Shown here one piece after another: positions 44,622 to 64,000 of a stretch of 64,000 bases of DNA; position 1 is the first letter of the stretch, and each line of letters opens with the position of its first letter. The notes under the pieces were generated by a model, which made no database searches, was not told the origin of the DNA, and saw nothing but the letters and a program-made list of their open reading frames with translations. The translations under genes were made by a program, and so were the position numbers. The stretch is from the NCBI GenBank assembly GCA_963795855.1, contig CAWCIZ010000002.1, forward strand, positions 64,001-128,000. The letters run 5' to 3'. Source of the stretch: Vulcanimicrobiota bacterium. Lineage in GTDB: Bacteria; Vulcanimicrobiota; Vulcanimicrobiia; Vulcanimicrobiales; Vulcanimicrobiaceae.

Positions 44622-44774
44622 ATGGAGTACACCAAACCGGAAATCATGACCTCGTATGCAGTGATCGATCTGTATACATCAGCGTCGGGCTTTGCCTCGA
44701 CTCCGACTTGCACCGGCTCGTTCGACGACAACGGCATCGGCGCAAACTGCGACGACGGCGGATCGTACGGCTAA
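44622..44774 (+). CDS. Putative RiPP precursor peptide P1, 50 aa (not in ORF track)
   Basis: MEYTKPEIMTSYAVIDLYTSASGFASTPTCTGSFDDNGIGANCDDGGSYG; AAGGA/GAGG RBS; terminator directly after; leader shared with P2 and P3. Confidence 0.8.
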   Translation: MEYTKPEIMTSYAVIDLYTSASGFASTPTCTGSFDDNGIGANCDDGGSYG

Positions 44775-44794
44775 CCGGCCGATACAAACGCCTT

Positions 44795-44831
44795 GAAGCC
44801 CTCCGCGCGCCCGCGGAGGGCTTCCTTTTTT
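44795..44831 (+). terminator. Intrinsic terminator after P1
   Basis: 13-bp stem GAAGCCCTCCGCG/CGCGGAGGGCTTC followed by T6. Confidence 0.85.
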
Positions 44832-44952
44832 ATAGTCCATATAACGGCCGACGGATGAGCCGTAGGAAGCTCGGAATCTGAGTACGACGCGCGTAGGCCC
44901 AGGGGCGGCGCGCGATTTACACTAAAAGCGGACACCGCTGCAGGAGGAAACC

Positions 44953-46190
44953 GTGTGGAGCACGTCTAGCGCGGCACGGGCTACGGTCGCTCGTCTTTTG
45001 GCGCCGCATACGATCGAAGAGTTCGCGCAGCGCTACTACGAGCGCGCGCCGCTGTACGTCGATCGCAGCGGCCGCGATGGCGTCTATTCACCTTACTTCA
45101 GCCTAAACGAGCTGGAGCGCGTTCTCTACGGCAGCGAGCTGCGTACGAAGGACGTCCGTCTGGTTCGCGACGGTTTGATGCAGCGCGTCGAGAGTTATAC
45201 CTTCTCGCGTTCCACCCGGAAAGCGGATGAAAAAAAGCCGCCCAGCGACGTCATCGACCACGATAAACTCAGCGTCCTTTTTGCGGCCGGCTGTACCGCG
45301 GTCTTCGATGCGTTGGACACGCATTCGATTACGTTGTCGAACCTGTGCCGCGAACTCGAAGCGTTTTTCGGCCACCGCGTCAATCCGAACGTTTACCTGA
45401 CGCCGGCGGGGAATCAGGGATTTGCGCCGCATTACGACACGCACGACACGCTGATACTGCAGATCCACGGCACCAAGCACTGGCGAATCTATGGTTCGGC
45501 ATTCGAGTCTCCCGCTCGACGACCAGCAGTACGACAAAAAAACGCACGCGCTGCCGGAGATTCTCTTCGAAGCCGACATGAAGCCCGGCGACCTGCTGTA
45601 CATTCCGCGCGGCTTCATGCACGAAGGCAAAGCAAACGCGGAACTCTCCCTTCACGTCACGCTCGGCGTGCACGCGGGTCGATGGGCGAATGTGGTGGCC
45701 GACGCAGTCGAGGCGATCGCCGAACGGGATCTCCTCTGGCGCAAATCCGCGATTCATGAAGCAACGGACGCCGAATTGGCGGAGATTCTTTCCCGGCTGA
45801 CGCCGGACGACTTGCGTCAAGCGCAACAGCGCATCGATCGGCGTTTCCGGACCCAGCGCAAAAATCGAGCTCGAGGGGCAGTTGCAGCAGATTGCGGCGA
45901 TCGGCGAATTATCGGCCGACTCGTTCGTCCGGCAGCGCGCGAACATCGTCTATGAGTTGCAGTCCGATGAGAAAAGCACGCACCTTTCCTTCTCGAGAAA
46001 AACGCTCACGTTCGGGCCGCAAGCGGCTGCGGTAATCCGCGAAATCGGCGCGCGCTCCGGCGTGCAGGTCGCCGAGCTGCTGCAGCACGACGAAAAGGCG
46101 CTCGGCGTCGTTCGCAAACTGATCCTCGAAGGATTCGCAGTGCAAGTTGCGCCCTCGGAAGTGCAGGGCCGCCCGGGAGCCGTTGCCTAG
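44953..46190 (+). CDS. JmjC/Cupin_4 Fe(II)/2-oxoglutarate oxygenase (YcfD/ROX-like); frameshifted
   Basis: NVYLTP, GFAPHYDTHD, LQIHGTKHW, LLYIPRGFMHE, LHVTLG; AGGAGG RBS. Confidence 0.85.
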
Positions 46191-46301
46191 TCCCGGCGTG
46201 CGTCACTCCCGGTATGCCCACGTCGCGATGGGTGAAAGTACCCACGCCTCCGTCGCCCGCGAGCGGGTGCGGATTCGCCCGTTTGGCGCTAGGATGAACG
46301 G

Positions 46302-47420
46302 GTGCGCATAGCATTCATCTGCCCGCTCCTGCCGCCGCATTACAATGGGTGCGGCGACGCCACCGATCGCCTCGCCCGTGAATTTCAGCAGCGGGGGTGT
46401 TCGACGCTCGTTCTGACGGATGACGTCGAAACGATTACGCACGCCTATCCGGCCCAGTCGATCGGGTCGTGGGATATTCGTTCCGTCGTCGAAACGAAGC
46501 GGCGGCTCGATGCTTTCCGGCCGGACGTCGTTTTGATGCAATACACCCCGTTTTTGTATCACCCGCGTTCTTCGTATCCGTTTCTCGCGATGAAAGCCTT
46601 GAGCGCGTACCGGCGCATTACGTACGTCCACGAATGCTTTTACTCAGCGGACAGCGCGGCGGTCCGGAGCCGTGCAAAAGCCGCCTATCTCACGCTGCGC
46701 GACAAAGCGGTGGTCGCGGCATCCGACACGATCTACGTGGCGAGCCCGCAACGCGCGTCTGCCTTACTCGAGCGAGCTCCGTACGCGCGCCACAAAATTC
46801 GGGTCGTGCCGTTCGGCGCAAACATCGAACCGCTTGCGCCGTTGCCGGCGCGCCGAACGGCACAAGCGCCGTTTCGGCTCGTCGCATTCGGCATCGTCAT
46901 GCCGCGCCGGCGCATCGAACTGCTGATTCAAACCGTGGCGGCGCTACGCGACGCCGGCATCGAGGCCTCGCTCGACGTGATAGGACGGGTTCAAGAAGCG
47001 GCATACCAAGAGCAGTGCGAAGCCATCGCGCTCGACCTCGCGGTAGCAGAGCGTATCCGTTTTCGCGGAGCCGTTCCGCCGCCGGAACTCGAAGCGGCAT
47101 TTGCACGGGCCGACGTTTTTCTCCACGCGGCGGAGGAGGGCGCGATCGCATCCGCCGGCAGCCTGCTCGCCGCACTCGCGCATGGTGTGCCGGTCCTGTG
47201 CGCGCGTACGCCGCACGACGACGCGCGCTTCGCAGACGCGGCCATTTTTGCCGACGCCGATGCTTCCTCAATGGCCGGCGCCTTCGAAAGCGCGCTATGC
47301 GATCCGGAGCAGTTGCGGCGCCGCGGCGCGCTCAGCCGGGCGCTCTACGACCAGGAATTCGGATGGGCGAGAATGGCCGACCGCATAGCCTCGGAAGCGC
47401 AGCTTCGCGCAGCCTCTTAA
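46302..47420 (+). CDS. GT4 (GT-B) glycosyltransferase
   Basis: VVPFGANI, FGIVMPRRRIELLI, ADVFL, LAALAHGVPV. Confidence 0.85.
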   Translation: MRIAFICPLLPPHYNGCGDATDRLAREFQQRGCSTLVLTDDVETITHAYPAQSIGSWDIRSVVETKRRLDAFRPDVVLMQYTPFLYHPRSSYPFLAMKALSAYRRITYVHECFYSADSAAVRSRAKAAYLTLRDKAVVAASDTIYVASPQRASALLERAPYARHKIRVVPFGANIEPLAPLPARRTAQAPFRLVAFGIVMPRRRIELLIQTVAALRDAGIEASLDVIGRVQEAAYQEQCEAIALDLAVAERIRFRGAVPPPELEAAFARADVFLHAAEEGAIASAGSLLAALAHGVPVLCARTPHDDARFADAAIFADADASSMAGAFESALCDPEQLRRRGALSRALYDQEFGWARMADRIASEAQLRAAS

Positions 47421-48394
47421 GCGGCGCTGTAAATGCGAGCGGCGTCGGTGAACCAGGCGACGGTTCTTGCAATACCTTCGTCGACGCTGATCGACGGGGC
47501 CCATCCGTACGAACGCGCACGCGTCAAATCCGGACGTCTGCGCATCGGGTCTTCCGGGCGCGCCGGTAGGTGCTCGGCGGTGAGTTGAACGCCGCAAGCC
47601 TTCGCAACGCGCTCGGCAATATCGAGGACCCGCAACTCTTCGTCGTTACCGAGATTCACGGGCGAGAGCCGATGCATACTTGATTGCGCGATGTGCAAAA
47701 TACCGCGAACGACGTCGTCGATGTAAGTGATCGAACGGGTTTGCTGGCCGTCACCGTGAATCGGGAACGCCTTGTCGTTGAGCGCGGCAGAAATGAGCGC
47801 GGGAATCAATCTCCCGTCATCGGCCTGCATGCGCGGTCCGTAGCAGTTGAAGAGCCGCACGATGCGCGCGTTCAAGCCGCGTTTGGCGACGGCGACGGAA
47901 ATCGCCGCCTCGGCAAAACGCTTGCCTTCGTCGTAGCATGCGCGGGGTCCGATCGGGTTCACATTACCGAAATACGTTTCGGGCTGCGGATTGACAAGCG
48001 GATCCCCGTACACTTCCGAAGTCGACGTAAAGAGCAGCAGGGCGTTTTGCTGCAGCGCAACGTCGATGAGCGCCATCGTGCCCAGTCCATTGACGCTAAG
48101 GGTCTCCCACGGGTGCGCTCCGTATGCTTCGGGGCTCGCCGGCGAGGCGAGATGGTAGATCGCCTCGAGCGGCTGGCGTATGGCCTTTTGCAATTCCGCG
48201 ATCGTCTGCGATGCGGGAGCCGCCACGTTCCAATACACGAATGTTGCGCCGCCTTCGCGAATTGCCCACTCGAGATTTGCGATGCGCCCGCTCGAAAGAT
48301 CGTCCATTACGATGACGTCTTTGCCGGATCGGCAAAGACGGTCGACCAAATGACTGCCGACGAATCCTGCGCCGCCGGTAACCAGAACCGCCAT
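47417..48394 (-). CDS. UDP-glucuronate decarboxylase-like NAD-dependent epimerase/dehydratase
   Basis: VTGGAGFVGSHL, YHLASPASP, TSTSEVYGDP, GPRACYDEGKR. Confidence 0.9.
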   Translation of the reverse strand: MAVLVTGGAGFVGSHLVDRLCRSGKDVIVMDDLSSGRIANLEWAIREGGATFVYWNVAAPASQTIAELQKAIRQPLEAIYHLASPASPEAYGAHPWETLSVNGLGTMALIDVALQQNALLLFTSTSEVYGDPLVNPQPETYFGNVNPIGPRACYDEGKRFAEAAISVAVAKRGLNARIVRLFNCYGPRMQADDGRLIPALISAALNDKAFPIHGDGQQTRSITYIDDVVRGILHIAQSSMHRLSPVNLGNDEELRVLDIAERVAKACGVQLTAEHLPARPEDPMRRRPDLTRARSYGWAPSISVDEGIARTVAWFTDAARIYSAA

Positions 48395-48395
48395 A

Positions 48396-49715
48396 TTACA
48401 CCGTCTCCCCTTCGACTCGCTTGGGCAGCGCGATTATGCCGGAGAGCAGCCAAAATATCTGCGTAACCGGCGCATAGACGAATGGACCTTGCGTCCATAT
48501 TCCGCTCGTCAACAACGCGACTTGAACCGAAGCGAAGGTGATGTACGCGGCACGCGCCTCGGTTGAGACGGCCCGTTTTGAAGCTCGAATCGCGAGCGTC
48601 AAAAACGTGCCCTGGAAGACGAGCAAGATGATCAGCCCGGGAATGCCCGTCTGATAGAGCGTGGCATAATAAAGATTGTCGACGAGCAGCGGAGCTCGGC
48701 CGCCGCCCTTGTTGAGCCGGCCGCCGGCTCCGGTCGCACCAAGCCCGTTGCCGAACGGATGCCGTATGCTGCTCAATAAAGCGAGGTGCTCGCTGCGGGC
48801 TCGCGTCACGGCGCCGATATCGAGGCTGTCGCTCTGGTACCTGGCGCTCGACATGCCGCCGGTGGCCTTGAGCGCCAGCGGAATGGCGAGCAAGAGAATG
48901 CAGAACGCGACAACCGCTGGTACGCGCATCGACCGATGGCGCCACGACAGAATCAAGAACGCCAGCAAACCGGCGGCAAGCGCGGCGGCCGAGGCGCGAG
49001 CGGCGGAGAATTGCAGCGCGAGCGCCATGCTGACGAGACAGACGGTGAGCACGAGACGACCGAAACCGCGCGCGCGCGCCATCGCCCCTGCCGCGAGAAT
49101 GAATCCTACGCACGTCGCAAGACCCAGCGACGCCGGATCGACAAGCGTGCCGTACGCGCGCATGAAAGCACTGGTCAAGCCGCCCATACCCGCACTCTGG
49201 TATGAGGTAAAGCGGGACGACAAGACCGCGAGCGCCGGCGAGAGCGAGTTCCATGTATCGGGTGCGAGAGCCTGAAAGATGCCCGCAATCGTCGGGATCA
49301 TAATGCAGGCTATCGCAACGTTTATCGTTTTCGAAACGCGCCGCGGGTTGGTGAAAAACACGGCGCCGACGAAAAACAGTACGGAGAACAGGACCAACGC
49401 GCGAAATCCGGCGATACCCGTCGCGATGTCGCCGCTTCCGGGGTTGAGCACCTGCGCCGTCATGTATCCGATGTAGAGCCACCACGCCCAAAGGCCTTGC
49501 CACTTGCCTTTCGGCCGATCCCAGGGCCGAACCGCAAGCGTCACCAGCATCGCGACGACGAGCGCGAGAAGCGCAAAGTCCTTCATCACATAGAAGATCG
49601 TGTTTCCATGCGTGTTTTTCACGAATCCGTCTACGCACGAAACGAAGAGCAACGTCGAGGCGACGGCCGCCGTGGTAAGTCCTTTGCGGTTAATGGCCGG
49701 CTGGGCGTACAACAT
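48396..49715 (-). CDS. Wzy polymerase / O-antigen ligase family membrane protein
   Basis: Polytopic; RAYGTLVDP, HPFGNGLG, VDNLYYATLYQTGIPG. Confidence 0.8.
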   Translation of the reverse strand: MLYAQPAINRKGLTTAAVASTLLFVSCVDGFVKNTHGNTIFYVMKDFALLALVVAMLVTLAVRPWDRPKGKWQGLWAWWLYIGYMTAQVLNPGSGDIATGIAGFRALVLFSVLFFVGAVFFTNPRRVSKTINVAIACIMIPTIAGIFQALAPDTWNSLSPALAVLSSRFTSYQSAGMGGLTSAFMRAYGTLVDPASLGLATCVGFILAAGAMARARGFGRLVLTVCLVSMALALQFSAARASAAALAAGLLAFLILSWRHRSMRVPAVVAFCILLLAIPLALKATGGMSSARYQSDSLDIGAVTRARSEHLALLSSIRHPFGNGLGATGAGGRLNKGGGRAPLLVDNLYYATLYQTGIPGLIILLVFQGTFLTLAIRASKRAVSTEARAAYITFASVQVALLTSGIWTQGPFVYAPVTQIFWLLSGIIALPKRVEGETV

Positions 49716-49742
49716 CTACGAGTATCCTTAACGAGTAATCAA

Positions 49743-50433
49743 TCAGCGAGTGATGACGACTTCACCGGAACGCGTCGGAATCGGCAACGTCGGGACCTTG
49801 ATCTCGGGCTGCGCAGGCACCGTGACGGGCTCTTCCGCCGCGCGCACAACCGGTTCAGGACGGCGTTCTTTGCCCTCACCGACTGCAACGACGCCAAGGA
49901 TTTGTGCGCCGACGCGCCGCAGCGCGGCCGTAATCTCCTGATCCGCGGGCACGGGCCGGCGGCCGAATCGGAATGAGAGAATCACGCCGTCGCCGGCAAC
50001 TGCAAACTGCAGCGCAACCGGATTCGTCACGAGAACGCCCGCGTTGACGATCGTGACGTCGTACTTCGTACGCAGATTGTCGAGGACGGTGCGCATCTTC
50101 AGATACGACGTCGTGGTATGGGGAGCGCTCTCGGCGACTGCGACTGCCGACAGATTCTTGATGGTGCCGTTGACGGCGCTCCCGGGAATCGCAGCGAAAT
50201 CGCCGACCGCCGCGACCTTGAGTCCCAGTTCGTCCTTCAAGAGCTCGACCGCCGTACGGATCCACCACAACCGTGCTGTATCCGGAGTCCGCGAAAGCGC
50301 GGCTCAGTTCACAGGCAACGATCCCGGCGCCGTCCTCCGGTGCCGCGGCACCAATCACGATGACGGCCGGCGTGCGAACCATCGACTCGAGTGTGACGCG
50401 CAATGATGCGAATTCTTCGCTAACTGCTTTCAT
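49743..50433 (-). CDS. CpsD/CapB-like (Wzc kinase domain) protein with degenerate Walker A; frameshifted
   Basis: EEFASLR, TVVVD, LRTKYDVTIVN, DGVIL, ILGVV; the P-loop reads AAPEDGAG. Confidence 0.7.
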
Positions 50434-50449
50434 AGTAGACTCCCTTGCC

Positions 50450-51780
50450 TTAGTCGGTGGAAATGGTACCAAGTACCGGACGGCCATACAGGCTTTCGAC
50501 TCCGGCAACGGTGCGGATACGTGGATCCGTTACTTCGAGGAGGAACGCAAGCCCGAACGCGATGATAATGAAACCCGCGAGCGAACCGAAGATTGCGAGC
50601 ATCGAACGCTTATCGAGCGTTTGCGTCGCCATCTGCGCATGGTCGACCACGGTGACCGACCCGATGTCCGCTTCCTGCGCGGTCGTCGCGAGCGTGTCCG
50701 TATACCGCGAGGCCAGCGCCTGATATTCCGTTACGAGGAGATCGCGCTGACGACGCAGATCGCCGAGCTTCACACCCATGCCCGGAACCGCTTGCAAGTG
50801 ATCTTCCGTCTGCGATATCTGCGAATCGATCGCGTCCAGACGCGCCCGATCCGCCGCGAGTTTGGCGTCTATCGTGCCTTTCGACGACAACGCAGACGCG
50901 TACGTGGGGCTGAACGTCGTCGAAGAGGCTACGGCGGCTTTCTCTGCTGCAGCCAGTTCGCTCTTCTCCTGCGCAATCTGCGCCTTCAGACCCGCTAGGC
51001 CCGGATACGTTCCTTTGAACTGGGAACGAACGAGCGCGAGTTGCGCTTCATCGTTCGATTCCTGCGTGCGCAGGCTTCTGATAGTACGGATCGCTGGTGG
51101 TCTTCTCTTCATGCACGATTGGCGCGATTTCCGCTAGGTGGCGGGATTCGGCGCCGGCTTGTGCTTCGTCGCCGACCATTTCCGCTTGGAGGTTGTCGCG
51201 CTGTGCCTGCAATCCGAGGATCTGCTGCGCCAAAAACTTGAGCGGCGTCGGAATCCGCATTGTAGGGATCTTGAATCGTCGCCTTTTGCAGGTTTTGATC
51301 GACTTGCTCGATTTCGCCGCGCTTCTTCTTCAGTTCGTTTTGCAGATAGCCGGAAACCACGGTGAATCGCGTTGATGCGATCTGGCGATAGTAGTTGGAA
51401 AGTTCGACCGCTGCGGCGTTCGCCGCCCTGACGGCGATTTTCGGCGAACGATCCGAGTATGTAATCGGCATCACGTTGGAGCCGAAGTTCACGTGCGCCG
51501 TCAACTTCGTCTGGATTACCGCCAGCGGCTCGTCCAAGCGAAGATCGCGGCGAATGCCCTCGAGCACGTTCGTGCTCGTTGCAAGCGTCTGCAGATCGAT
51601 GCCGGTGGCAACGGGTGCAGCGCCCGCGCGCGAACTTATCGCGAGTACTTCCGAGGTAGCCGAATACTGCCGCGGCGCCGTCTTGAAAAGCAGGGCAGCC
51701 ACGACCACGCCGAAGACGACGACGTATGCGATGAGCCACCGCCGGCGCTTTAGAATATCAAGAACAGTCGAAAAGTCCAT
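50450..51780 (-). CDS. Wzz/GumC polysaccharide co-polymerase; frameshifted
   Basis: ILKRRRWLI plus TM, YSATSEVL, coiled coil, second TM then DPRIRT..LYGRPVLG. Confidence 0.8.
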
Positions 51781-51792
51781 AGCGTTCTACTT

Positions 51793-53104
51793 TCAGCCAG
51801 CACTGGCAAGGGAAATGGAGTCGGCAATGGCGGCGCGGCCGATGCCGCGATACACGAGGCCCGCCGCGGCCACGCGTTCCGGATCCAAAAGGTTACGCCC
51901 GTCGACGACGAGCCTGCGGCGCAGGCGCGGCGCATATTGCGCTGGTTCGATCGATGCGAAGATCGGCCAGTCGGTGAGCACGACGAGCGCATCGGCATCG
52001 GCGGCCGCGAGCGGAGATCCAAGCACTTTGCAGGGCACGTGAAGCGGCAGCGCGTGAACGCCCGGGTCGTACGCCTGCAGCACGGCACCGCGCGCCGAGA
52101 GATCGTCGATGATGCGAAGGGCGAGAGAGTCGCGCACGTCACTGGTCCCGGCCTTGAAAGCAAGACCCCAGATTCCGATGGTGCGCCCTGCGAGCGATCC
52201 GAGCTCGGTCTCCAACTCTTTGACGACGACTTTGGGCTGCCGGTCGTTCACCTCGAGTATCGCGGACAAGAGGGTGCGTCCCGCTTGAAACTCGCCGGCG
52301 ACGTGCCGCAAACTCTTGACGTCCTTTTCGAAGCACGGGCCGCCGAAACCGATACCGGGATTGAGAAAGAGCGATCCGATTCGACGATCGTAGCCGACGC
52401 CGCGAAGCACTTCGTCCGCGTTCGCGTCTGCGCTCTGACAGAAGTTGGCGACTTCGTTTGCAAAACTGATCTTCAGCGCCAGAAACGCGTTGGACCAGCC
52501 CTTGATCAGTTCGGCCTCGCGCAGTCCCGTGACGACGATCGGCCATTGAAGCGGCTCGAACAAGCGCGCGTACGCAATCGCTGCGGCGTGGTCATTGCAC
52601 GCCGATGACGATCCGATCGGGATGCAGGAAGTCGTGAACCGCCGTGCCTTCTCGCAGAAACTCGGGATGATAAAGCACCGTGTGCTTGCCCTGCAGCCGC
52701 TTGACGACCATGTCGCTGGTCCCAGCCGGCACCGTGGAGCGCAGAACGACGATCGCCGACGGCGGCAGTTTGGCTGCGATAATCGCATCGATTGCGGCGT
52801 TCAGTCCGCGCAGATCCGCGGAGCCGTCGTCGGCCGAAGGCGTTCCGACGGTAAGCACCAGGAAGCGCGCGTCGGCGGCGGCGCGGGCAAAATCGTCGAG
52901 GAACGATATGCGGTTCTCCGCCAGATGTTTATGCAGCGCTTCGCTCAGCCCGGCTTCTTGATACGGCGTCACGCCGGCGCGCAAACCGGCGATGCGGTCG
53001 CGCAAAACGTCGTAGCCTCGGATTTCGCAGCCGAGTTCCGCTAGCCCGATGGCCGATGCCATGCCGACGTATCCGGTTCCGACGATGCAAATTTTACTGT
53101 TCAT
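51793..53104 (-). CDS. ugd: UDP-glucose 6-dehydrogenase; frameshift near 52600
   Basis: IVGTGYVG, PEFLREG, NAFLALKISFANE, GFGGPCFEKD, GLAFKAGTSDVRDS. Confidence 0.92.
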
Positions 53105-53111
53105 GCGGTTA

Positions 53112-53720: not shown

Positions 53721-53721
53721 T

Positions 53722-54801: not shown

Positions 54802-54819
54802 AGTCTTCTTCCTACGTCG

Positions 54820-55809
54820 TTACGGGGTATTGAAAACGGTAAGCGGTGAAACGCTGAAGTCGATTTGAGCCGGAAGCTTCGGCGCCTGCGATTGCCCTTG
54901 CGACTGATAAACGCTGATGTAGTTTTGGTCCGCGTCGATCAAGAGCGCTTGATATTGCGCCTTTCCGTAGAAATTGCCGGGCGCGACGCACGTGTAATCT
55001 TTGCTGGTTACGACGAAGCCCACGACGTTGAAGCCCGGATATTTGGTCGGATTGTTATCCAAATGCGTCAAGAACGCGACGAAGTATTCGGTGGTGCCCG
55101 CAGCGGGCGTCCACGTCACGTACGCGGACCCGACGGGGCAGCCGTTCGTTGCGTTTCCGGCAAACGAAACCGTCACCGGCGATTGCCTCGGAAGCGACAC
55201 GGCCGGATTCAAAATCGTGAAGTTCACGCTGCCGCCCGGCGGGTTGTTCACCTTGGCGTTGTACGTGCCGCCATGGTTCGAGGAATCGGCGTTCGAGCGA
55301 TAGCCGATGCCGAGCGTCGTCGTCGACGCAGACGTGTTGAACGCCTTGCCGCCGAGCCAAAGCGGATTCGTTACGTTTGTTTTATACGGTGCCGGCAATG
55401 ACGGGTTGTCGTTGGAGCACTCGCATAAGCCCGCAGCATCGCGGAAGGTCATCAGGAATCCGATCGCCGGATTCGAACCTTTACCGGATCGTGCGACCGT
55501 CGCGGTGCCGCCCGTTATCTGGAAAACGAACGGTCCGGATATTTTCGGCGTTACCGATGACGCTGCGGCTTGCGGAGCGCGAGTAACGACGCTCGACGTC
55601 GCGGTGAAACCGGCGTCGAGTTCGAGATCGGAAAGTAAATCGGATCCCGTCAAACTGAAGAGATCGTCAGGCGACATATTTTGCGGCGTCTGTCCGGAAC
55701 TATTTCCACCCGGCACAGGGCCGTTCGGTGTTCCGCCACCACCGCCGCCGCAGCCTGCGAGTGCAAGACCTGCGGCGAGTACAATGACGAGAAGAGCGCG
55801 CTTCTGCAT
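54820..55809 (-). CDS. Lipoprotein of unknown function
   Basis: Lipobox LAGC followed by a Gly tract; Ser/Thr/Asn-rich, beta-type sequence. Confidence 0.75.
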   Translation of the reverse strand: MQKRALLVIVLAAGLALAGCGGGGGGTPNGPVPGGNSSGQTPQNMSPDDLFSLTGSDLLSDLELDAGFTATSSVVTRAPQAAASSVTPKISGPFVFQITGGTATVARSGKGSNPAIGFLMTFRDAAGLCECSNDNPSLPAPYKTNVTNPLWLGGKAFNTSASTTTLGIGYRSNADSSNHGGTYNAKVNNPPGGSVNFTILNPAVSLPRQSPVTVSFAGNATNGCPVGSAYVTWTPAAGTTEYFVAFLTHLDNNPTKYPGFNVVGFVVTSKDYTCVAPGNFYGKAQYQALLIDADQNYISVYQSQGQSQAPKLPAQIDFSVSPLTVFNTP

Positions 55810-55931
55810 AGCAATTTCCCTCGGTTTCTCCGGCGGCGAAATGATGCACAAATGATAAACTAATGGCACCGTGCGCAATAAGAGCGCCCTGCACCAGGGT
55901 TATCCACGCAGTTGCCGGGTGTGCTATGAGC

Positions 55932-56321
55932 CTATCGGCGCACGTGCAGGTGATACTGCAGTGCTAACCGCAGGCGAAGAACGAGCGCTTTTGCGCTCGA
56001 ACGGACGTCCGAATGGATTACGCGTCCGTGCCGACGTACTTCGGTGACCGTACCTATGACGTCACAAGGTTCGACATGCTCCACCTGCCCGCGACTTGCA
56101 TCGCCGGCGGTCAGCACTTCGCCGCTGCCGATTCCGATGACACGGTGCGCGACCAGAACGTCGTTGTGCGGAAATACGACGACGTCGCCGAAACGCGGCG
56201 ACCGATGCGGTGATACGAGGAGATCGTCGCCTTCGAGGATCCCGGGCGACATGCTGCCGCCGCGCAAACGCAGGCACCACGGCCGCGTTGGGCGCGTCAT
56301 GGCGAGGACGTCTTTGAGCAT
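55932..56321 (-). CDS. S24/S26 family peptidase (Ser/His type)
   Basis: GGSMSP, GDVVVF, VAHRVI, TAGD motifs; no N-terminal TM. Confidence 0.85.
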   Translation of the reverse strand: MLKDVLAMTRPTRPWCLRLRGGSMSPGILEGDDLLVSPHRSPRFGDVVVFPHNDVLVAHRVIGIGSGEVLTAGDASRGQVEHVEPCDVIGTVTEVRRHGRVIHSDVRSSAKALVLRLRLALQYHLHVRR

Positions 56322-56323
56322 CG

Positions 56324-57190
56324 CTACGCTACGGCGGTTTGCGCGTCCATCGTGAGGCGCTGCACGGCGTCGGCGGTATCGTCGGGAGCCCCAAGCGTCA
56401 GCGCATAGATGCGCGACTTCGATAACGCGGCGATGACCCGATCGACGATACGTAGGTGATTCTTGTCGATCGTCGTCTGCACTTCGCTGCCCACGGCCAG
56501 GAAGATCGCCTCGGAGAGCGGCAACGGGCGAGCGTGTGCGTGTCGCCCGCGCCCGATGATGAAGAAATATGAAGCTCGATGCGCCGAAATACCCCAAGCA
56601 CGGTCGAACGTGCGCGCGGGATCGACGGCCTCCCAATCGGTTTCCAAACCGTTCAAGGCCAGCAGGCGGCGCGTGCCGCTGCGAATCGAGAACAGACGCG
56701 GAAAGGATTCCACTTGTTCCGTCGCCGTGTTCACAAGCGCGAACTCGTCCGACAGGGGCATGTTGTCGTCGCTGCGCAGCATGAGCGAAAGCGATGTGGT
56801 GCTTTTCCCGCTGGTCGTCGGTCCGACGATTACGGCCGCTCTATCGCCAATAGCGACGGCGCCGGCATGAAAGACGACCAGCTCTTGCCGCAGGCGAAAG
56901 ACTCGAGCATTGATGGCGAGCATCGCACGGCCTTCGATTGCGGCCGGGGAAAGGCGAAGCGCGTTCGACGTTCCGAGATCGTCGAACGCCCGCACGAATT
57001 CGTCGCCGATGAGCACGCCAGCGGTGCGTCCGCGGGAGATGATGTACGCCGTAAGAAGCGGCTCGCACACACTGCTGTAGTCGAGCATCCGCGCATAGCG
57101 GCGTTCGATAAGATCCATGACGCGCTCGTCATCGCACCCGATCTGCACCGGGACGCGGGCGATGTTCAGGCGTGCGATGGTCGTAGTCCT
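56324..57190 (-). CDS. HprK-related P-loop kinase 1; start uncertain
   Basis: FHAGAV, Walker A GPTTSGKST, LSDEFALV, FPR. Confidence 0.8.
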   Translation of the reverse strand, partial: RTTTIARLNIARVPVQIGCDDERVMDLIERRYARMLDYSSVCEPLLTAYIISRGRTAGVLIGDEFVRAFDDLGTSNALRLSPAAIEGRAMLAINARVFRLRQELVVFHAGAVAIGDRAAVIVGPTTSGKSTTSLSLMLRSDDNMPLSDEFALVNTATEQVESFPRLFSIRSGTRRLLALNGLETDWEAVDPARTFDRAWGISAHRASYFFIIGRGRHAHARPLPLSEAIFLAVGSEVQTTIDKNHLRIVDRVIAALSKSRIYALTLGAPDDTADAVQRLTMDAQTAVA

Positions 57191-57191
57191 A

Positions 57192-57449
57192 CTAAGCGAC
57201 TTCGCGGACCAAGCCCTGTTCGAGGAACACCGTCATGATTTCGGAAACGTCCTGTCCGAGATCATGACCATCCGCGTCATACCGAACGCGCAGATACTCT
57301 TCCAACTCGGTGTGCGTTTTGCCCGAGCAGTTGCGCAGCAAATCGGCCGCCGTCTGATTGACGACATGAACCTTTTCCCGCGCAGGATCGTACACCAAGG
57401 TCTCCACGCCGACCTCACGCATTTCGATGCCGTCAATCGCTTGATACAT
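57192..57449 (-). CDS. Stand-alone PqqD family protein / RiPP recognition element (RRE)
   Basis: 85 aa; REVGVETLVYD, VHVVNQTAADL, LRVRYD, DVSEIMTVFLEQGLV fit the PqqD pattern. Confidence 0.88.
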   Translation of the reverse strand: MYQAIDGIEMREVGVETLVYDPAREKVHVVNQTAADLLRNCSGKTHTELEEYLRVRYDADGHDLGQDVSEIMTVFLEQGLVREVA

Positions 57450-57452
57450 GTT

Positions 57453-57596
57453 TTACTCCGATATGATGTTGCATTGGGGATTAGACGGGCCGGTTTCGAA
57501 ACACATTACCGATGCGAAGCCCGACACGTCGCTGAACAATACGCCAACGTCATAGGACCGGATAATCTCCGGCCGGTTGTACATCGTCTTAGTCAT
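57453..57596 (-). CDS. Putative RiPP precursor peptide P3, 47 aa (not in ORF track)
   Basis: MTKTMYNRPEIIRSYDVGVLFSDVSGFASVMCFETGPSNPQCNIISE; ATGA overlap with the P2 stop; ends 3 nt before the RRE start. Confidence 0.8.
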   Translation of the reverse strand: MTKTMYNRPEIIRSYDVGVLFSDVSGFASVMCFETGPSNPQCNIISE

Positions 57597-57691
57597 CCGA
57601 TTCCGCCCAAACTGCCGAAATCGCCGGCGGCGCTGGCAAACAAGGCGGCCAAATCGAATGTGGCTACGAGGACCGGGCGTGCATACTGCAT
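57593..57691 (-). CDS. Putative RiPP precursor peptide P2, 32 aa (not in ORF track)
   Basis: MQYARPVLVATFDLAALFASAAGDFGSLGGIG; GGAAAGGA RBS; YxxPxL leader motif. Confidence 0.78.
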   Translation of the reverse strand: MQYARPVLVATFDLAALFASAAGDFGSLGGIG

Positions 57692-57791
57692 GTAGGCTGA
57701 TCCTTTCCAGAGGTGTTTTTTGATTGTAGCCGCTGCAGCCGCTGCTCCAAAGTGCAGGAAGACACGCGGGCTCTTATGCCTTGAGTGCTAC

Positions 57792-58595
57792 CTACACATA
57801 AGCCAAGGTGCCCACGCGCCGCGCGTGCTGAATCGACATCATGAACAGCGCAAGGGCCAAAGGTATTCCTACCACCGCGAAGGCGGCCAGAACGAGCACG
57901 TCGCCGCGTATCACGCCGAAACCGGCGCCGTGCAAGATCGCTGCCCGCAGCGCGCTCAGGCCGTGCGTGATTGGGAAGACCATGGAGACGACTTTGAGCG
58001 GCAGCGGCAGAACCGCCACGGGGAAGTACACGCCGCCGAGCAGATTCGTCGCGCTGCTGACTATGCCCAAGGCCCCGGTGCCTTTTTTGAACGCGATAAC
58101 GGAGGCGGCCGCGGAGATTCCTATGGGCGAGATGGCGAGCATCGACAGCCCCAGGGCGAGCAGAGCCGTCGGCACATTGGCATGGTGGAGGTTCACGCCG
58201 AACACCGCAGCGCCAATCACCAGGATGAGCACCGTCTGCACGGCGGTGAAAACGAACGCCGACGTTGCTGAGGCGAGGACGACCGCCGGAACGCTGGCCC
58301 GCGTAACCAGAATCGCCTCGATCGTTCCCGACACCTGGTCGCGCTGGATAGCGCTCGCGAATGACGTAAGCGCGACGGACTGGAACCGCGCGAAAACGAT
58401 GCCGATGAGCACGAATTCGAAATACTGGCCGTGCACTGCCTTGAGCGCGCCGGCGCTCGAGCCGAACGTGCGCCCCACGAAAAACATCATCGCGCACATG
58501 ACGAGCACGGACGAGAGCTGCCCGAAGATCGAAAACTTCGACACGGTTTGATACGCCCAGTCGCGGCCGATGAACGCCGACAAAATTTTGGTCAT
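57792..58595 (-). CDS. ABC-2 type exporter permease
   Basis: YFEFVLIG, GTIEAILVT, GGVYFPVAVLP, FPITHGL; six TM segments. Confidence 0.88.
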   Translation of the reverse strand: MTKILSAFIGRDWAYQTVSKFSIFGQLSSVLVMCAMMFFVGRTFGSSAGALKAVHGQYFEFVLIGIVFARFQSVALTSFASAIQRDQVSGTIEAILVTRASVPAVVLASATSAFVFTAVQTVLILVIGAAVFGVNLHHANVPTALLALGLSMLAISPIGISAAASVIAFKKGTGALGIVSSATNLLGGVYFPVAVLPLPLKVVSMVFPITHGLSALRAAILHGAGFGVIRGDVLVLAAFAVVGIPLALALFMMSIQHARRVGTLAYV

Positions 58596-59383
58596 CAGGT
58601 TCCTCTCGCGACGCTTCGGAAATAGCCGAACAGCGGCTGTTCCCGCGTGCCCGCGGGCGCCTTTGCTTCGATCTCCAGCGGGGTCCCGACGGCCGAAACG
58701 CGATGCTCGTGCAGGATGGCCATGCGGTCGCACATCGACCATGCTTCGTCGAGCTGGTTGGTGGCGAGCAGAACCGTTTTGCGCTCGGCTACGACAAGCC
58801 GGTCGCGGACGCTTTGACGAAATTCGACGGCCGCGATCGGATCGAGTGCTTTCGTCGGCTCGTCCAACAGCAACACCGGGGGATCTGCGAGCATCGCCCG
58901 GATCAGCGCCAGGCGCTGCTTCATACCGGTGCTGTAGGAACGGACGCTGGAATGCAGGCGGTCCGCCAGCCCCAACCACTCCGCAAGTTCGAAAATGCGC
59001 TTGCGCAGTGCCGTTCTTCCCAAGCCCTGCAGTTTGCCAAAGAACTGTAAGTTGTCCCACGCGGTCAGGCGCATGTAATACGCGCGTTCGTCGGAGCTGC
59101 AGATTCCGATGCGTACGCGCACTCGAGCCGACTGGCGCGCGACGTCGTAGCCGAGCACTCGCACCGTGCCGGAATCCGGAACCAAAAGGGTCGAGATGAT
59201 CTTTAGAAGCGTGGTTTTTCCGGCGCCGTTCAAACCCAGCACGCCATAACACTCGCCGGCACGCATCGTCAGCGTCACGTCTTCGAGTGCCGTGCGCTTT
59301 TCCGCGCGGCGGAACATCTGGCGCATCCCCTGATCGATGGGATACTGCTTACAGACGTTGCGGATTTCGATGGCGTCAGGCAT
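58595..59383 (-). CDS. ABC exporter ATP-binding protein
   Basis: GLNGAGKTT, YSTGMKQR, LLLDEPT. Confidence 0.93.
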   Translation of the reverse strand: MPDAIEIRNVCKQYPIDQGMRQMFRRAEKRTALEDVTLTMRAGECYGVLGLNGAGKTTLLKIISTLLVPDSGTVRVLGYDVARQSARVRVRIGICSSDERAYYMRLTAWDNLQFFGKLQGLGRTALRKRIFELAEWLGLADRLHSSVRSYSTGMKQRLALIRAMLADPPVLLLDEPTKALDPIAAVEFRQSVRDRLVVAERKTVLLATNQLDEAWSMCDRMAILHEHRVSAVGTPLEIEAKAPAGTREQPLFGYFRSVARGT

Positions 59384-60521
59384 GCGGCAAAAACGGTGAA
59401 ACGGCGCGGCGGAAACCGCCCACGAGCCGCTTCATCAGCTTGGGACGGGCATCGAACTGCGTGAATTCGACGCTCCCGAAATTCTGTTTGAGCAAGTGCA
59501 CGCGATCCGAAAACCGTTCCATCCAAAACAGGCGCATCAGCGTGCGATGGCCGCTTCCGCCGGTAAGGACGCGCGCAACTCCGATATCCGTTACGTAACG
59601 CGAGAGCGTTCCGCCGCGGCGCTCGAGCAGGCGGGAAAGCAGATTCTTGTCCACGGGAGCGTCCAACAGCCACTTCGCGAGTTGCAGCGCGGGCGCCACC
59701 ACCTGCGCCGCGTTCGCTTCCGTGACGCGCTGCTCGAAGACGTCCCAGTCGATTGGCCCGTGCAGCGACTCCGCGATGTCGACAATCCCTCGCAAATGTC
59801 CGTCGAAGCCGTTGCCCCATGCGAGGTGAATGCAGAGATGCAGCAGTTCGTCCTGGGGGTCGAGCCGTCTGCACGGCACTCCGGCGAGGACCACCGGCAC
59901 CGCGCGGTGCCGCATCGCGTCGATATTCAAACGAAACGGGTTGGGCCGCCGGCCGAAGTCCCAGTGGAGTTCGATGCAAAAGCGGCTCGGTTTTCGCGAA
60001 TGCCTGGGCAACTGGTAGTAGTTTTCGAAATACCAACTGCGCCCGTGGGGCGTCGCCTCAGCGTCGTATCCCAGACGCGCCAGCACGTCCTCGGCGAGCG
60101 CAATCTCTTCCCGGCCGAACAGGACGTCGAGATCGCAGAACGCGCGCAGACTGATGTCCCGGTAAAGCGTCTCCGCCAGCGCGACGCCCTTGAGCACGAT
60201 TGGGGAAAGCCCCGCATCCTCGAAGGCGAGAAGCGCCTCGTGCGCCTGCCGCAAGAAGACACTGTTGAGCGCCGAGCGCTTCTGCCGCTGTTCCTGCAGC
60301 TGCTGCACGACCGAATCCGGAACCTTTATCCCACGGCACGATTCTATCGTACGAAGCAGCAGCGGTCCGAAATGATGTTTGGATGCCGTATCGAGCACCG
60401 CTTCCCAGGACTTAACGCCCGCCGCCGCGGCAACCGCGGCATCGGCGTGCGGGCGCAATCGCGCGCACGCGAGGATAAAACGCCACTCCGGCGTCATACT
60501 CTGCGCCAAATTCCGGTTCAC
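59376..60521 (-). CDS. Nucleotidyltransferase family protein (NTP_transf_5-like)
   Basis: VLKGVALA..LY...LRAFCDLDVL, IELHW, LLHLCIH, IDW. Confidence 0.88.
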   Translation of the reverse strand: MNRNLAQSMTPEWRFILACARLRPHADAAVAAAAGVKSWEAVLDTASKHHFGPLLLRTIESCRGIKVPDSVVQQLQEQRQKRSALNSVFLRQAHEALLAFEDAGLSPIVLKGVALAETLYRDISLRAFCDLDVLFGREEIALAEDVLARLGYDAEATPHGRSWYFENYYQLPRHSRKPSRFCIELHWDFGRRPNPFRLNIDAMRHRAVPVVLAGVPCRRLDPQDELLHLCIHLAWGNGFDGHLRGIVDIAESLHGPIDWDVFEQRVTEANAAQVVAPALQLAKWLLDAPVDKNLLSRLLERRGGTLSRYVTDIGVARVLTGGSGHRTLMRLFWMERFSDRVHLLKQNFGSVEFTQFDARPKLMKRLVGGFRRAVSPFLPHA

Positions 60522-60538
60522 GGTTTGTCGGGTCCCTT

Positions 60539-61201
60539 CTAAATCAGGCCGGATCTAACTGCGTGAACTGCCGCTTGCGAGCGCGCGGTGATATTCAGCT
60601 TCGAGAAAATGTGACTGACGTGATTTTTCACGGTCTTGTCGGACAGGCTCAGCTGCTCGCTGATCTCCTTGTTCGAGAGGCCCTGCGCGATCAGACGAAT
60701 GACTTCATTCTCGCGCGGCGTCAAATCGTACATGTGACCGCGGCTGGTCGAGCTGCGGCGGCGCAGCAGTTCGCCGGCGATCCGCGGATCCACGTAGGAA
60801 CCGCCCGCGGCGATGATCTTGAGGGCGCGAATCAGTTCTTTCGGAGCCACGTCTTTGATGATGTAGCCGCTGGCGCCGATGGAAAGCCCCCGCTGCAGCA
60901 CTTCCGGCTGCAATTGCGTCGAGAGCAAACAGACTTTTACGGACGGGGCATCGCGGCGCACGGCCGCCATCGCGTCGTCCATCTTGAGGATTTGTCCGTC
61001 GACGTCGAACACGATCAGGTCCGGCGTGAGGGAGCCGAGCGGAATTTTGTCGATCGCTTCGGCGTCGCCGACGATCTCGAGTTCCGCGTCGGTCGCGAGC
61101 AACTGGCAAAGCGCCTTGGCAAAGATGCCCTGGCCGGCGACCACTACGATGCGCGTCGTCCGCGAAATCGCTTGCGGTGCTTCCAATAGTCCTGCAGTCA
61201 T
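60539..61201 (-). CDS. NarL/FixJ-family response regulator (REC plus LuxR HTH)
   Basis: PDLIVFD, GASGYIIKD, LTPRENEVI, GLSNKEI, TVKNHVSHIFSKL. Confidence 0.92.
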   Translation of the reverse strand: MTAGLLEAPQAISRTTRIVVVAGQGIFAKALCQLLATDAELEIVGDAEAIDKIPLGSLTPDLIVFDVDGQILKMDDAMAAVRRDAPSVKVCLLSTQLQPEVLQRGLSIGASGYIIKDVAPKELIRALKIIAAGGSYVDPRIAGELLRRRSSTSRGHMYDLTPRENEVIRLIAQGLSNKEISEQLSLSDKTVKNHVSHIFSKLNITARSQAAVHAVRSGLI

Positions 61202-61504
61202 GGAGAAATCGTGCCTCCTAATAATATGAAGAACGAACGGCTCGGGTAACTATCATCCTGCCACTCGTCGTACGGTCACGGCCGAGTTCCGCAATCATGC
61301 CATACTGAAATGCCTATATCTATCCCGCATTTGCGGTATTTTTTGTTGGGATAGGACTAAAGAACTGCACGCTGCCCGGGCTATTGGGCGTGCACAGTCC
61401 CGTACTCACGGCTACGCGGCCCATTATCGCATGGGCGTAACGCTTCTGCGCATGTCAGACTCTCAAAGTTATGCTGTTTGAAACCCCGTCCGAATGGAGC
61501 AGCA

Positions 61505-62384
61505 GTGCACGACTCAGTACAATACAGAATTGCCGACGTCGACGTCGCGATCGAAGCGCCGGCGTCCATCTTGCGAATCGTGACCGATACATACCGGCGA
61601 TTCCCGATCAGCGCGCCGCGAACAGTGCCGCACGTTAGGGTTCTGGCGGCAATCGACGACGATGGTCACGTGGACATACGCATCGGTGAAAAGCATTATC
61701 AAAACGTCTTCGCCTGGACAGGCCGGGCAACGGTCGGACTGGAGCTCGTCGAACGCCATCATCACCGCCGTGGCACAGCACTCGCGCTTTCTGATCGTGC
61801 ACGCAGCCGCATTGGAACGTGACGGTGAAGCGCTCTGCATCGCCGCTCCCGGACATACCGGCAAGACGCTGCTCACGGCGCATCTTCTCTCACGCGGCTG
61901 GCGCTGCCTGAGCGACGAATACGCGTTCATCGAACCGCTCAGCGGTCAGATCGTGCCGTTTCCGAAGTTGCTGTACGTGCGCTCTTCCTCGCTGCCGCTG
62001 GTGCCGCGCACGTTTCGCAAATGCCTGGAATGCTCGCCGTGGTATGGAATGGGTGAGCGTCCCGGGCTCGTGTTCTCCGGCGTCGACCCGAGCGCCGCGT
62101 ATTCGGAAGACATCTGGTCCACCGGCGCGCGCTTGTCCCGTCTTCTCATGCTCGTGAAACGCAACGCTTCGGGCCCATCCATCAAACCGTGCGCCGGGTG
62201 GTCGATTATCCCGGAACTCAATTCGGTAACGTGGCAGCCGCCGGATCTGCTGGACGGTTTGTCACGCATGGCGGCCGCGCTGCGCGGCGTCGAGGTCGGC
62301 AAACTGGTCGCGGCGGATCCGCTGATGACCGTAAACGCCATCGAACAGTGGGCTGCAACGGAGCCGGCGATCGCGTATGCCTAA
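61505..62384 (+). CDS. HprK-related P-loop kinase 2; frameshift near 61750
   Basis: IVHAAALE, Walker A APGHTGKT, GWRCLSDEYAFI, PFPK. Confidence 0.82.
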
Positions 62385-62937
62385 TGCGCCGCTTGCGCGC
62401 CCGCTCGCGAAGAAGGCCGAGATGCTCGGCTTCTTGTTTCGTTTGCTGCTTTTCGATCTGTTCGTCGGCTCGCGCGAGGGACTCGTGAAGATTGGCGCGG
62501 GCGTGAGCGCCACCGGCGATGTCAAAGTGCATCTGGGCAAGCGTGTGTTTTTGGGCCGCAGCGGCGTCTTTCAGGGCACCGGAACCGTCAACGTCGGCGC
62601 CGGTACCTACGTGGGGAATTTTTTCGATTTCAATTCACGGGCGAGCATCGAGATCGCGGAGCAGTGCATGTTCGGCAATTTCGTCACCCTGGTCGACAAC
62701 AACCACGGAACCGCCGTGGATCGCGACATGAAAGATCAGCCGTTTGAAGCGAAAGGCATCGCCGTCGGAAGAAATTGCTGGCTCGGCGAAAAAAGCACTG
62801 TGCTTGCGGGCGTTACCATCGGCGAAAATGCAATCGTCGCCGCAGGATCCGTCGTGACGCGCGACGTGCCGGCGAATGCAGTGGTAGCGGGCGTACCGGC
62901 GCGGGTTCTTCGCCTGCGCACGCCGGTTGCGGTGTGA
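62377..62937 (+). CDS. Hexapeptide-repeat (LbH) acyltransferase
   Basis: LVDNNHG, VGRNCWLG, GVTIGENAIVAAGSVVTRDVP, AGVPAR. Confidence 0.9.
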   Translation: MPNAPLARPLAKKAEMLGFLFRLLLFDLFVGSREGLVKIGAGVSATGDVKVHLGKRVFLGRSGVFQGTGTVNVGAGTYVGNFFDFNSRASIEIAEQCMFGNFVTLVDNNHGTAVDRDMKDQPFEAKGIAVGRNCWLGEKSTVLAGVTIGENAIVAAGSVVTRDVPANAVVAGVPARVLRLRTPVAV

Positions 62938-62939
62938 CC

Positions 62940-64000
62940 ATGCCCGAGGCGCAAGCCATACATCAGCAGCACACCGCCAAACAAATTTTCCTGAACACGT
63001 TCGCCGGCCTCGCCAGCAGCACGGGCTCGGCTCTGGCGGGCTTGATCGCGACGCCGCTGCTGATTTCGCGCCTCGGCGTCGAGACCTTCGGATTCTGGGC
63101 GGTGCTCACGGCGATGGTGAACTACGCGGGGCTGCTCGACGGCGGTCTGAACAGCACGTTCATGAAGTACATCGCCGAGTACGCTGCGCGCGGCGAACGC
63201 GACCGCATCCGTCAGGTCATCACATTCGGGGCATCGTTCTACGCAGTGTTGGGTTTCGTCGTTGCCCCGATTGCCGCGTATTTCGCGCCTTTCGCCATTG
63301 GGGTGATGCACGTCGATCCGGCTATAGCTCGACAAGGACCCGCCGTATTCGGATGGATAACGCTCTCGCTCTTTCTGACCGGCGGCGCGGCGGCGATTGC
63401 TTCGGTGCTCAGCGGCTTCGGCCAGTCCGCGAATCGTCTGGATGAGCAACTTCTTCAGCCGTACCGTCTTTTCGATCGTCGCCGTCGGTCTCTGTTATTT
63501 CGGTTTCGGATTGACCGGCATGGTATTGGCGACGTTCGCGCAGCTCGCCGTTTTCGCGCTGCTTACCGGAGTGGCGGCGCGGCGGCGCTTCGGATCGCTC
63601 TTCATAGCGCCGTGGCGGTGGGAGCGCAGCGTCATCAGAAATCTTTTCGCGCTCGGGGGTTGGATTCAACTCACGAACGCGTGCAGCACCATCGTCGTCG
63701 AGAGCAACCGGTTTATCATTTCTGCGTTCGTCTCGACGAGCGCCGTCACGTATTTCGAAGTCGCGAGCCGGCTCACGCGCGTTGCCCGATCGATACCATT
63801 CAACTTCATCGTCGCGCTGCTGCCCGCCGTCTCGGCCAGGAACGCCGCCCTTCCGGACGACGAGTTCAACGCGACGTACGTGCGAGCCAGCCGGTACGTC
63901 AACTACGCGACGATTTTTCTCGTCGGCTTCATCATTGCCGCCGGAAAGGTGCTCTCGTTCGCGTGGATCGGAACAATCTATCCGCACATCGGCCTCATCG
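62940..64000 (+). CDS. Wzx-like oligosaccharide flippase; frameshifted, truncated by window end
   Basis: Hand translation MPEAQAIH...IATPLLISRLGVETFGFWA...LLDGGL..FMKYIAE; polytopic. Confidence 0.8.
   Translation, partial: MPEAQAIHQQHTAKQIFLNTFAGLASSTGSALAGLIATPLLISRLGVETFGFWAVLTAMVNYAGLLDGGLNSTFMKYIAEYAARGERDRIRQVITFGASFYAVLGFVVAPIAAYFAPFAIGVMHVDPAIARQGPAVFGWITLSLFLTGGAAAIASVLSGFGQSANRLDEQLLQPYRLFDRRRRSLLFRFRIDRHGIGDVRAARRFRAAYRSGGAAALRIALHSAVAVGAQRHQKSFRARGLDSTHERVQHHRRREQPVYHFCVRLDERRHVFRSREPAHARCPIDTIQLHRRAAARRLGQERRPSGRRVQRDVRASQPVRQLRDDFSRRLHHCRRKGALVRVDRNNLSAHRPH

Follow-up and report, generated by a model that had tools for sequence, protein, structure and literature searches.

A predicted pathway resembling that of linear polyphosphorylated peptides, with dispersed precursors and a JmjC oxygenase, in a Vulcanimicrobiota genome

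Linear polyphosphorylated peptides (LPPs) are made by an active pathway, encoded by lppA-K-B-S-D-N in Paenibacillus alginolyticus and located, among Bacillota, in capsular polysaccharide loci (Popov et al. 2026, PMC13381572). There, LppS cleaves the precursor in a manner dependent on the RRE (the recognition element of RiPPs, peptides made by the ribosome and modified after translation), and LppK phosphorylates Ser3 of the core (PMC13381572). The phosphorylated lasso peptides paeninodin and pseudomycoidin are also associated with a kinase (PsmK), a nucleotidyltransferase (PsmN) and a discrete RRE, and PsmN-dependent hexosylation has been shown (PMC6993621). Here we describe a comparable cassette in a 64-kb window, the whole stretch of DNA analysed (G000:C2:64001-128000; G codes are genomes of the phylum, G000 being the source genome, L codes are fetched loci and C the contigs of G000), from a Vulcanimicrobiota genome of 3.06 Mb in six contigs, estimated to be 86% complete. 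A first-pass annotation had read the locus as a new, RRE-dependent but non-lasso peptide-modification system. The machinery is borne out, with a single PqqD-type RRE, six open reading frames (ORFs) sharing one leader and no cyclase; the novelty is not, since the same enzyme set within capsule loci has already been described as LPP (PMC13381572). We consider it probable that the cassette at 55932-62384 makes LPP-like linear phosphopeptides from the six precursors and that a JmjC oxygenase hydroxylates the three with Asp-rich cores.

The likeness to LPP is extensive. Both systems combine a discrete RRE, a kinase like HprK, an NTP transferase and an ABC exporter with the lack of a cyclase, and both have an SpI/S26-like Ser-His-Asp peptidase, the motif layout here being, by eye, like that of the LPP cluster-1 peptidases. 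They also have in common a YxxP leader, variable cores, frequent location in polysaccharide loci and a Ser three residues past the cut, which in our case is a predicted one. A linear product of the LPP type is likely, for the enzymes are those of the LPP core in all but the exporter, a separate ATPase and ABC-2 permease here but an MsbA-like transporter in LPP. There are nevertheless differences. The LPP consensus YxxPxVLxHQxIxFETxxS is found in none of 73 Vulcanimicrobiota precursors (see below), only YxxPx[ILV] being held in common, and the leader is here some five residues longer up to the cut, with A/V-x-G in place of F-E-T. Two kinases and a fusion of the S26 peptidase to the nucleotidyltransferase (NTase) are frequent, the cores contain Cys, satellite precursors have JmjC, GNAT or sulfotransferase-like neighbours, and the hosts are Vulcanimicrobiota (Eremiobacterota) rather than Bacillota. 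By profile-structure comparison the RRE does not appear especially near LppB. As judged from its genes, the pathway appears to work like LPP, but leader consensus, exporter type and phylum set it apart as a variant: an evidently real and conserved pathway, in a phylum new for LPP, with a leader family of its own. What seems new here is the dispersed library of precursors and the Asp-rich subtype coupled to JmjC genes. The accessible parts of the LPP supplements make no mention of Eremiobacter, Vulcanimicrob, Baltobacter or JmjC (PMC13381572), and the literature searched, in which few subscription papers were covered, contains no link of JmjC to an LPP-like pathway and nothing on the cassette in Eremiobacterota.

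Two other systems bear comparison. The phosphorylated lasso peptides differ in having a macrolactam synthetase and a B2 protease, and in carrying the modified Ser at the C-terminus where our candidate Ser lies near the N-terminus of the core (PMC6993621). The HPr-rel-A system of NCBIfam (TIGR04352 and TIGR04353) similarly pairs an HprK-related kinase with a PqqD-family protein, but the proteins here score well below its cut-offs (36 and 67 against 200; 25 against 35).

The three short ORFs previously picked out in the window (A1, A2 and A3; Table 1) exist and share their leader, although the start of A2 needed correction: it is probably 57596, where the ATG overlaps the A1 stop codon as it does in orthologues. 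A3 was also found, as P0001, in the predicted-protein library. A genome-wide scan revealed three further ORFs with this leader (C1:250961-251122, C2:565104-565274 and C3:683652-683810), and a 73-sequence profile found no seventh in G000 (six at or above 30.9 bits, the next at 9.5). A leader pattern, written from the G000 peptides themselves, matches six of the 34,053 short ORFs of the genome and none of 42,476 in either the reversed or the complemented genome. A Shine-Dalgarno-like word lies upstream of 65 of the 73 family ORFs, compared with 1,308 of 18,906 (6.9%) short ATG ORFs of the genome. Orthologues of A1 and A2 sit on two metagenome contigs and differ mostly at third codon positions (18 codons identical, 13 synonymous and 11 non-synonymous for A2; 15, 11 and 4, respectively, for A1).

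More widely, a profile of 21 seed sequences matched (E 0.01) in 37 of 301 genomes from the phylum, including G000 and the unpublished G248 and G233, and retrieved 71 representatives from among 1.84 billion proteins. From 33 of these genomes 73 precursor ORFs were extracted; the unpublished genomes, one degenerate copy (L043:14437) and weak matches inside long frames in G008 and G168 were left out. The short ORFs are therefore conserved, as the earlier annotation had required and, to judge by their pattern of substitution, they are real genes. They match no Pfam or NCBIfam model and no solved structure. Of the 73, 40 belong to cassettes, eight precede a JmjC gene and two a GNAT-like gene; the other 23, a number of them close to contig ends, are orphans. 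The related GNAT-like genes are directly behind the precursor in G000 (L005:8938-9582) and G142 (L038:4435-5226). Orphan precursors in L039, L041 and L076 adjoin large adenylate-cyclase/NTPase/TPR regulator genes, and one 97-residue representative (P0045) has two tandem leader copies, which may represent read-through or a cassette-type precursor.

Signal peptidases favour small residues at positions -3 and -1 relative to the cut. Counting from the Tyr of YxxP, the pattern A/V-x-G/A occupies positions +18 to +20 in 65 of the 73 precursors (47 of the 52 outside the seed set), other offsets reaching at most 24, and conservation collapses past +20. In 61 further metagenome representatives, position +18 is Ala in 50, position +20 is Gly in 58 and position +23 is Ser in 53. 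Because its small residues fit the signal-peptidase rule, cleavage is likely to follow position +20. F-E-T within A2, which resembles the LPP site, was considered and rejected, orthologues having F-E-Q or F-E-N. With cleavage after +20, five of the six G000 precursors would, as in LppA, have a core Ser at position 3; in the sixth it would be at position 4. Every one of the 73 predicted cores contains a Ser somewhere; the cores are otherwise hypervariable, some being merely 5-10 residues long, and have no anchor. The likely leader peptidase is the S26/SipW-type protein, which retains intact GGSM (Ser), AHRV (His) and GD (Asp) motifs.

These components suggest the following scheme. The genome contains six precursor ORFs and one each of the RRE, S26 peptidase and NTP_transf_5 protein. 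By analogy with LPP and lasso work, the RRE would bind YxxPx[ILV] of the leader, whereupon a kinase would add one or more phosphates to a core Ser, most likely Ser3 or, in the one precursor, Ser4. The peptidase would cut behind A/V-x-G, 20 residues past the Tyr, and a hexose might conceivably be added onto the phosphate, as PsmN would suggest. The ABC-2 permease/ATPase pair is the likely exporter, its permease being present in 17 of 22 full cassettes (loci with a precursor, kinase, RRE, S26 peptidase and NTase together), and the two Cys may form a disulfide. Finally, the pairing of genes suggests that JmjC enzymes beta-hydroxylate Asp or Asn in precursors of an F-x-S subtype, the remote ones being served in trans. 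The product would most likely act as a secreted peptide, acidic, metal-binding or signalling in nature, whose expression here accompanies that of the exopolysaccharide, which it would neither prime nor anchor. LPP has been studied in Bacillota only. The variant adds 73 precursors for which a cut site is predicted, their short cores being easily expressed and readable by mass spectrometry. The S26-NTase fusion of many relatives, moreover, ties the enigmatic transferase to cleavage.

The lasso peptide hydroxylase CanE reportedly acts on Asp. Other Fe/2-oxoglutarate oxygenases that modify ribosomal precursors, some with the assistance of an RRE, include the JmjC ornithine hydroxylase BipG (PMC12707348) and the RRE-fused hydroxylase MppG (bioRxiv 10.64898/2026.10.04.756588). 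The accessible parts of these sources connect neither them nor CanE with a kinase/S26 pathway of LPP type or with dispersed precursors. By contrast, three of the six G000 precursors directly precede a JmjC gene. The encoded proteins share the JmjC domain, dimerisation helices and C-terminal winged helix of the ribosomal oxygenases NO66, MINA53 and YcfD, but at around 23% identity, and a genome holds several paralogues whose genes are coupled to short precursors. In G000, an intact JmjC gene with a precursor of its own lies at C2:563708-564949. Their H-x-D...H metal ligands are invariant, and a model of an intact paralogue (L004:8206-9450) has the NO66/MINA53 hydroxylases as its closest solved structures. 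Hairpins like that seen between A3 and its JmjC gene lie behind most other peptide-JmjC pairs.

Precursors in front of JmjC genes form a distinct subtype. All eight have F-x-S after the predicted cut and at least three Asp, whereas among the 40 cassette precursors Phe comes first in three and three Asp are present in two; the mean Asp fractions are 0.19 and 0.03, a comparison involving five related genomes and without a valid significance test. For JmjC homologues of at least 43% identity a precursor is directly upstream in 10 of 11 cases (9 of 10 if the unpublished G248 is omitted), but distant JmjC loci have none (0 of 24 in the phylum, with 1.5-kb flanks, and 0 of 72 from other taxa). Two paralogues of 34-35% identity, in G000 and G203, lie near precursor-JmjC pairs with no precursor of their own. 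A JmjC subfamily with predicted peptide substrates is thus defined. The subtype mostly lies away from the cassette. G151 and G055 carry the pair on a contig other than that of the cassette, and the neighbours of the polysaccharide locus in G203 include two pairs, a sulfotransferase-like gene and two additional JmjC genes. In L156, RRE, precursor (its core with two Asp and five Asn), JmjC and two kinases are consecutive, with an S26-NTase fusion and ABC pair on another contig of that genome. This gene order is the best sign that the JmjC belongs to the pathway and that its parts may work in trans. Sulfotransferase-like P-loop genes, possible tailoring enzymes, are found beside precursor-JmjC pairs (L004:11886-13789 and L032:14215-15177). 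A family of 359-412 residues is encoded by such loci and in the G203 polysaccharide locus (L003:6951-8030, L004:9979-11148 and L034:387-1625); it has no Pfam or NCBIfam match, its Atlas clusters are unnamed and a single-sequence model of the 359-residue member has a pLDDT of 42.

The alternative that survives best, albeit an unlikely one, is that two pathways share a leader simply by descent, the cassette serving its two adjacent precursors while the JmjC enzymes, through their winged helices, and the GNAT proteins read the satellites directly. The C-terminus of the JmjC model does have the strand-strand-strand-helix-helix-helix order of an RRE, at pLDDT above 90, and its alignment to the RRE profile is in register (P=0.006), no match being obtained with four other segments. 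The probability of that match is, however, just 6%, and the Asp that is invariant in RREs is out of register. One JmjC homologue has a weak ROXA-like_wH match; co-folding of residues 305-404 of L004:8206-9450 with the 32 N-terminal precursor residues (score 0.00, no controls) counts neither for nor against. JmjC-RRE fusions have bacterial homologues in RiPP-like contexts (PMC12710340), and G142, discussed below, has precursors without detectable core enzymes. Equally, satellites retain the A-x-G/F-x-S junction with no peptidase or exporter seen beside them, and in L156 a stand-alone RRE and two kinases flank the precursor-JmjC pair. It is thus likely that one core machinery acts in trans on satellite precursors, which are hydroxylated in addition.

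Several observations nevertheless weigh against an LPP-like pathway with JmjC-hydroxylated satellites. Ser3 is not universal, being found in 33 of the 73 precursors (14 of the 52 outside the seed set), or 49 if Ser4 is allowed, and the leader statistics are partly circular, with counts leaning to the seeds, because the ORFs were found with a seed-derived profile. The JmjC-adjacent set comes from only the five related genomes and L156, and in G203 a close JmjC homologue lacks a preceding precursor. In G142, which is 93% complete, three precursors and a JmjC gene are present but RRE, kinase, S26 peptidase and NTase were not found, although, with the contig breaking off within the polysaccharide locus, their absence may be a gap. 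HprK-like kinases of these two subtypes also form a tandem pair with no precursor detected nearby in G000 (C1:37330-39146, L238; see also L240 and L241), deletion of lppN has no effect in LPP (PMC13381572), and the completeness of the G000 assembly leaves room for a missed cyclase. The stand-alone G000 pair is divergent from an ECF-sigma-like gene, and pairs are also present in G203 and G151. A more ambitious extension, which we regard as tentative, is a genome-wide hub in which the single RRE, peptidase and nucleotidyltransferase mature dispersed precursors, each with an add-on enzyme (JmjC, GNAT or sulfotransferase-like), to give phospho(glyco)-, beta-hydroxy-Asp- and disulfide-containing metal-binding peptides tied to the extracellular matrix of Eremiobacterota. 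If so, one RRE pathway would diversify through dispersed precursor-enzyme modules that cluster-based mining misses.

The association with polysaccharide genes was assessed in the 22 full cassettes, with flanks of around 8 kb (shorter in L088 and L111). Such genes are near 10 of them, the other 12 being among housekeeping genes; L108, which has an SDR epimerase and a weak Ugd match in a housekeeping setting, was by our judgement not counted as polysaccharide-associated, and L153-L155 were excluded as repeats of genes already counted. Since more than half lack polysaccharide neighbours, the cassette is a self-contained module, often but not always found in polysaccharide loci, and the link is optional. 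This weakens the earlier suggestion of the peptide as a primer or anchor for the polysaccharide. In its stronger form, with the peptide as an exopolysaccharide primer, carrier or anchor coupled via phosphoserine by the nucleotidyltransferase, we regard this as very doubtful. The cassette does lie directly upstream of, and on the same strand as, wza and the priming transferase in G000, G203, G055, G151, L229 and L230, LPP clusters also occur in capsule loci (PMC13381572) and PsmN is required for the hexose on phosphoserine (PMC6993621). Against it, besides the 12 unaccompanied cassettes, two of which have the short flanks, the locus owns a polyprenyl priming transferase and a flippase, and the short, variable cores offer no anchor.

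The absence of a lasso cyclase or B2 protease, reported earlier for the window, extends to the 18 kb that follow it. No macrolactam synthetase (C protein) was found in G000, nor any match to PF13471, the B2 transglutaminase-like leader peptidase. The one strong Asn_synthase match of the genome was rejected as a candidate, being an AsnB of full length that has the N-terminal glutaminase Cys and is encoded in a different sugar locus; AsnB has no match in the fetched precursor loci. Among the neighbours of 13 cassettes (80 of 129 unlabelled proteins scanned, E 1e-9) there is no cyclase and no B2 protease; one radical SAM gene was seen, in L083. G000 has no YcaO, and its 16 radical SAM matches are neither in nor near the window. 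A lasso-type pathway with its cyclase and B2 protease in unassembled sequence can be set aside as highly improbable, for although the leaders are of YxxP type, the RRE profile is closest among solved structures to lasso TfuB1 (E 5e-7; 9x8z chain B, E 0.17) and PF13471 matches in 12 of the 32 other genomes that bear precursors, in four cases within the region that holds a precursor, it matches nothing in G203 (a single contig), G151, G055 or G142 either, Thr is at the penultimate leader position in just two of the 73 precursors and an S26 peptidase is there instead. In some relatives (L043:1-4619; G029, G209 and G262) a further set of kinase, NTase and PqqD genes, accompanied by a B2-type transglutaminase match, lies among glycosyltransferases near the cassette.

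Comparison of the window proteins with Pfam and NCBIfam models placed all the previously named genes as described, in position, order and strand (Table 1). Compared with intact orthologues, six are broken up by frameshifts (JmjC, second kinase, wzz, Wzc-like, ugd and wzx), and in G203 the splits fall in other genes; those of G000 are probably assembly errors.

Table 1. Features of the cassette and its surroundings in the 64-kb window (a slash in a junction marks the predicted cut).
Feature	Position	Strand	Remarks
Precursor A3, 50 aa	44622-44774	+	YxxP leader; A-S-G/F-A-S junction; Asp-rich core with two Cys
Terminator-like 13-bp hairpin and T-run	44795-44834	+	Between A3 and JmjC; top site of scan
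NO66/ROXA-like JmjC Fe/2-oxoglutarate oxygenase	44953-46190	+	C-terminal winged helix; two frameshifts
GT4 glycosyltransferase	46302-47420	+	Pfam/NCBIfam
Polysaccharide block	47417-54801	-	uxs-like epimerase, Wzy_C protein, Wzc-like (split), wzz (split), ugd (split), priming sugar transferase, wza
Lipoprotein-like protein, family unknown	54820-55878	-	Between peptidase and wza also in G203, G055, G151
S26/SipW-type peptidase (S24/S26)	55932-56321	-	No membrane anchor; only copy found in genome
HprK-related kinase 1	56324-57148	-	Walker A GKS, SDE motif; start possibly nearer 57190
PqqD/RRE, stand-alone	57192-57449	-	PF05402, 35.9 bits (cut-off 23.4); sole PF05402 match in genome
Precursor A2	57453-57596	-	47 aa from 57596 (43 aa from 57584); S-G/F-A-S junction; two Cys
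Precursor A1, 32 aa	57593-57691	-	A-A-G/D-F-G-S junction
ABC-2 permease and ABC ATPase	57792-59383	-	Pfam/NCBIfam
NTP_transf_5 nucleotidyltransferase-fold protein	59376-60521	-	KG and DxD motifs; only copy found in genome
LuxR-type response regulator	60539-61201	-	Orthologues in G203, G151, G055 61-82% identical
HprK-related kinase 2	61478-62384	+	One frameshift; ~20% identity to kinase 1
Hexapeptide acetyltransferase and wzx flippase (split)	62377-64000	+	Window end

Counts of promoter and terminator sites do not exceed those of shuffles. Past the window the polysaccharide locus runs on for some 11.6 kb and contains nothing but sugar genes (GT2, three glycoside-hydrolase-like proteins, GT4s, a GmhB-like phosphatase and a GHMP kinase), before housekeeping genes begin. 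The three glycoside-hydrolase-like proteins (L001:3504-8128) are secreted paralogues with only a weak GH5 match. Elsewhere in the window, at 39569-41026 on the minus strand, a 485-residue ORF consists in part of about 12 tandem repeats rich in Tyr-Ala-Ala-Pro-Val-Arg.

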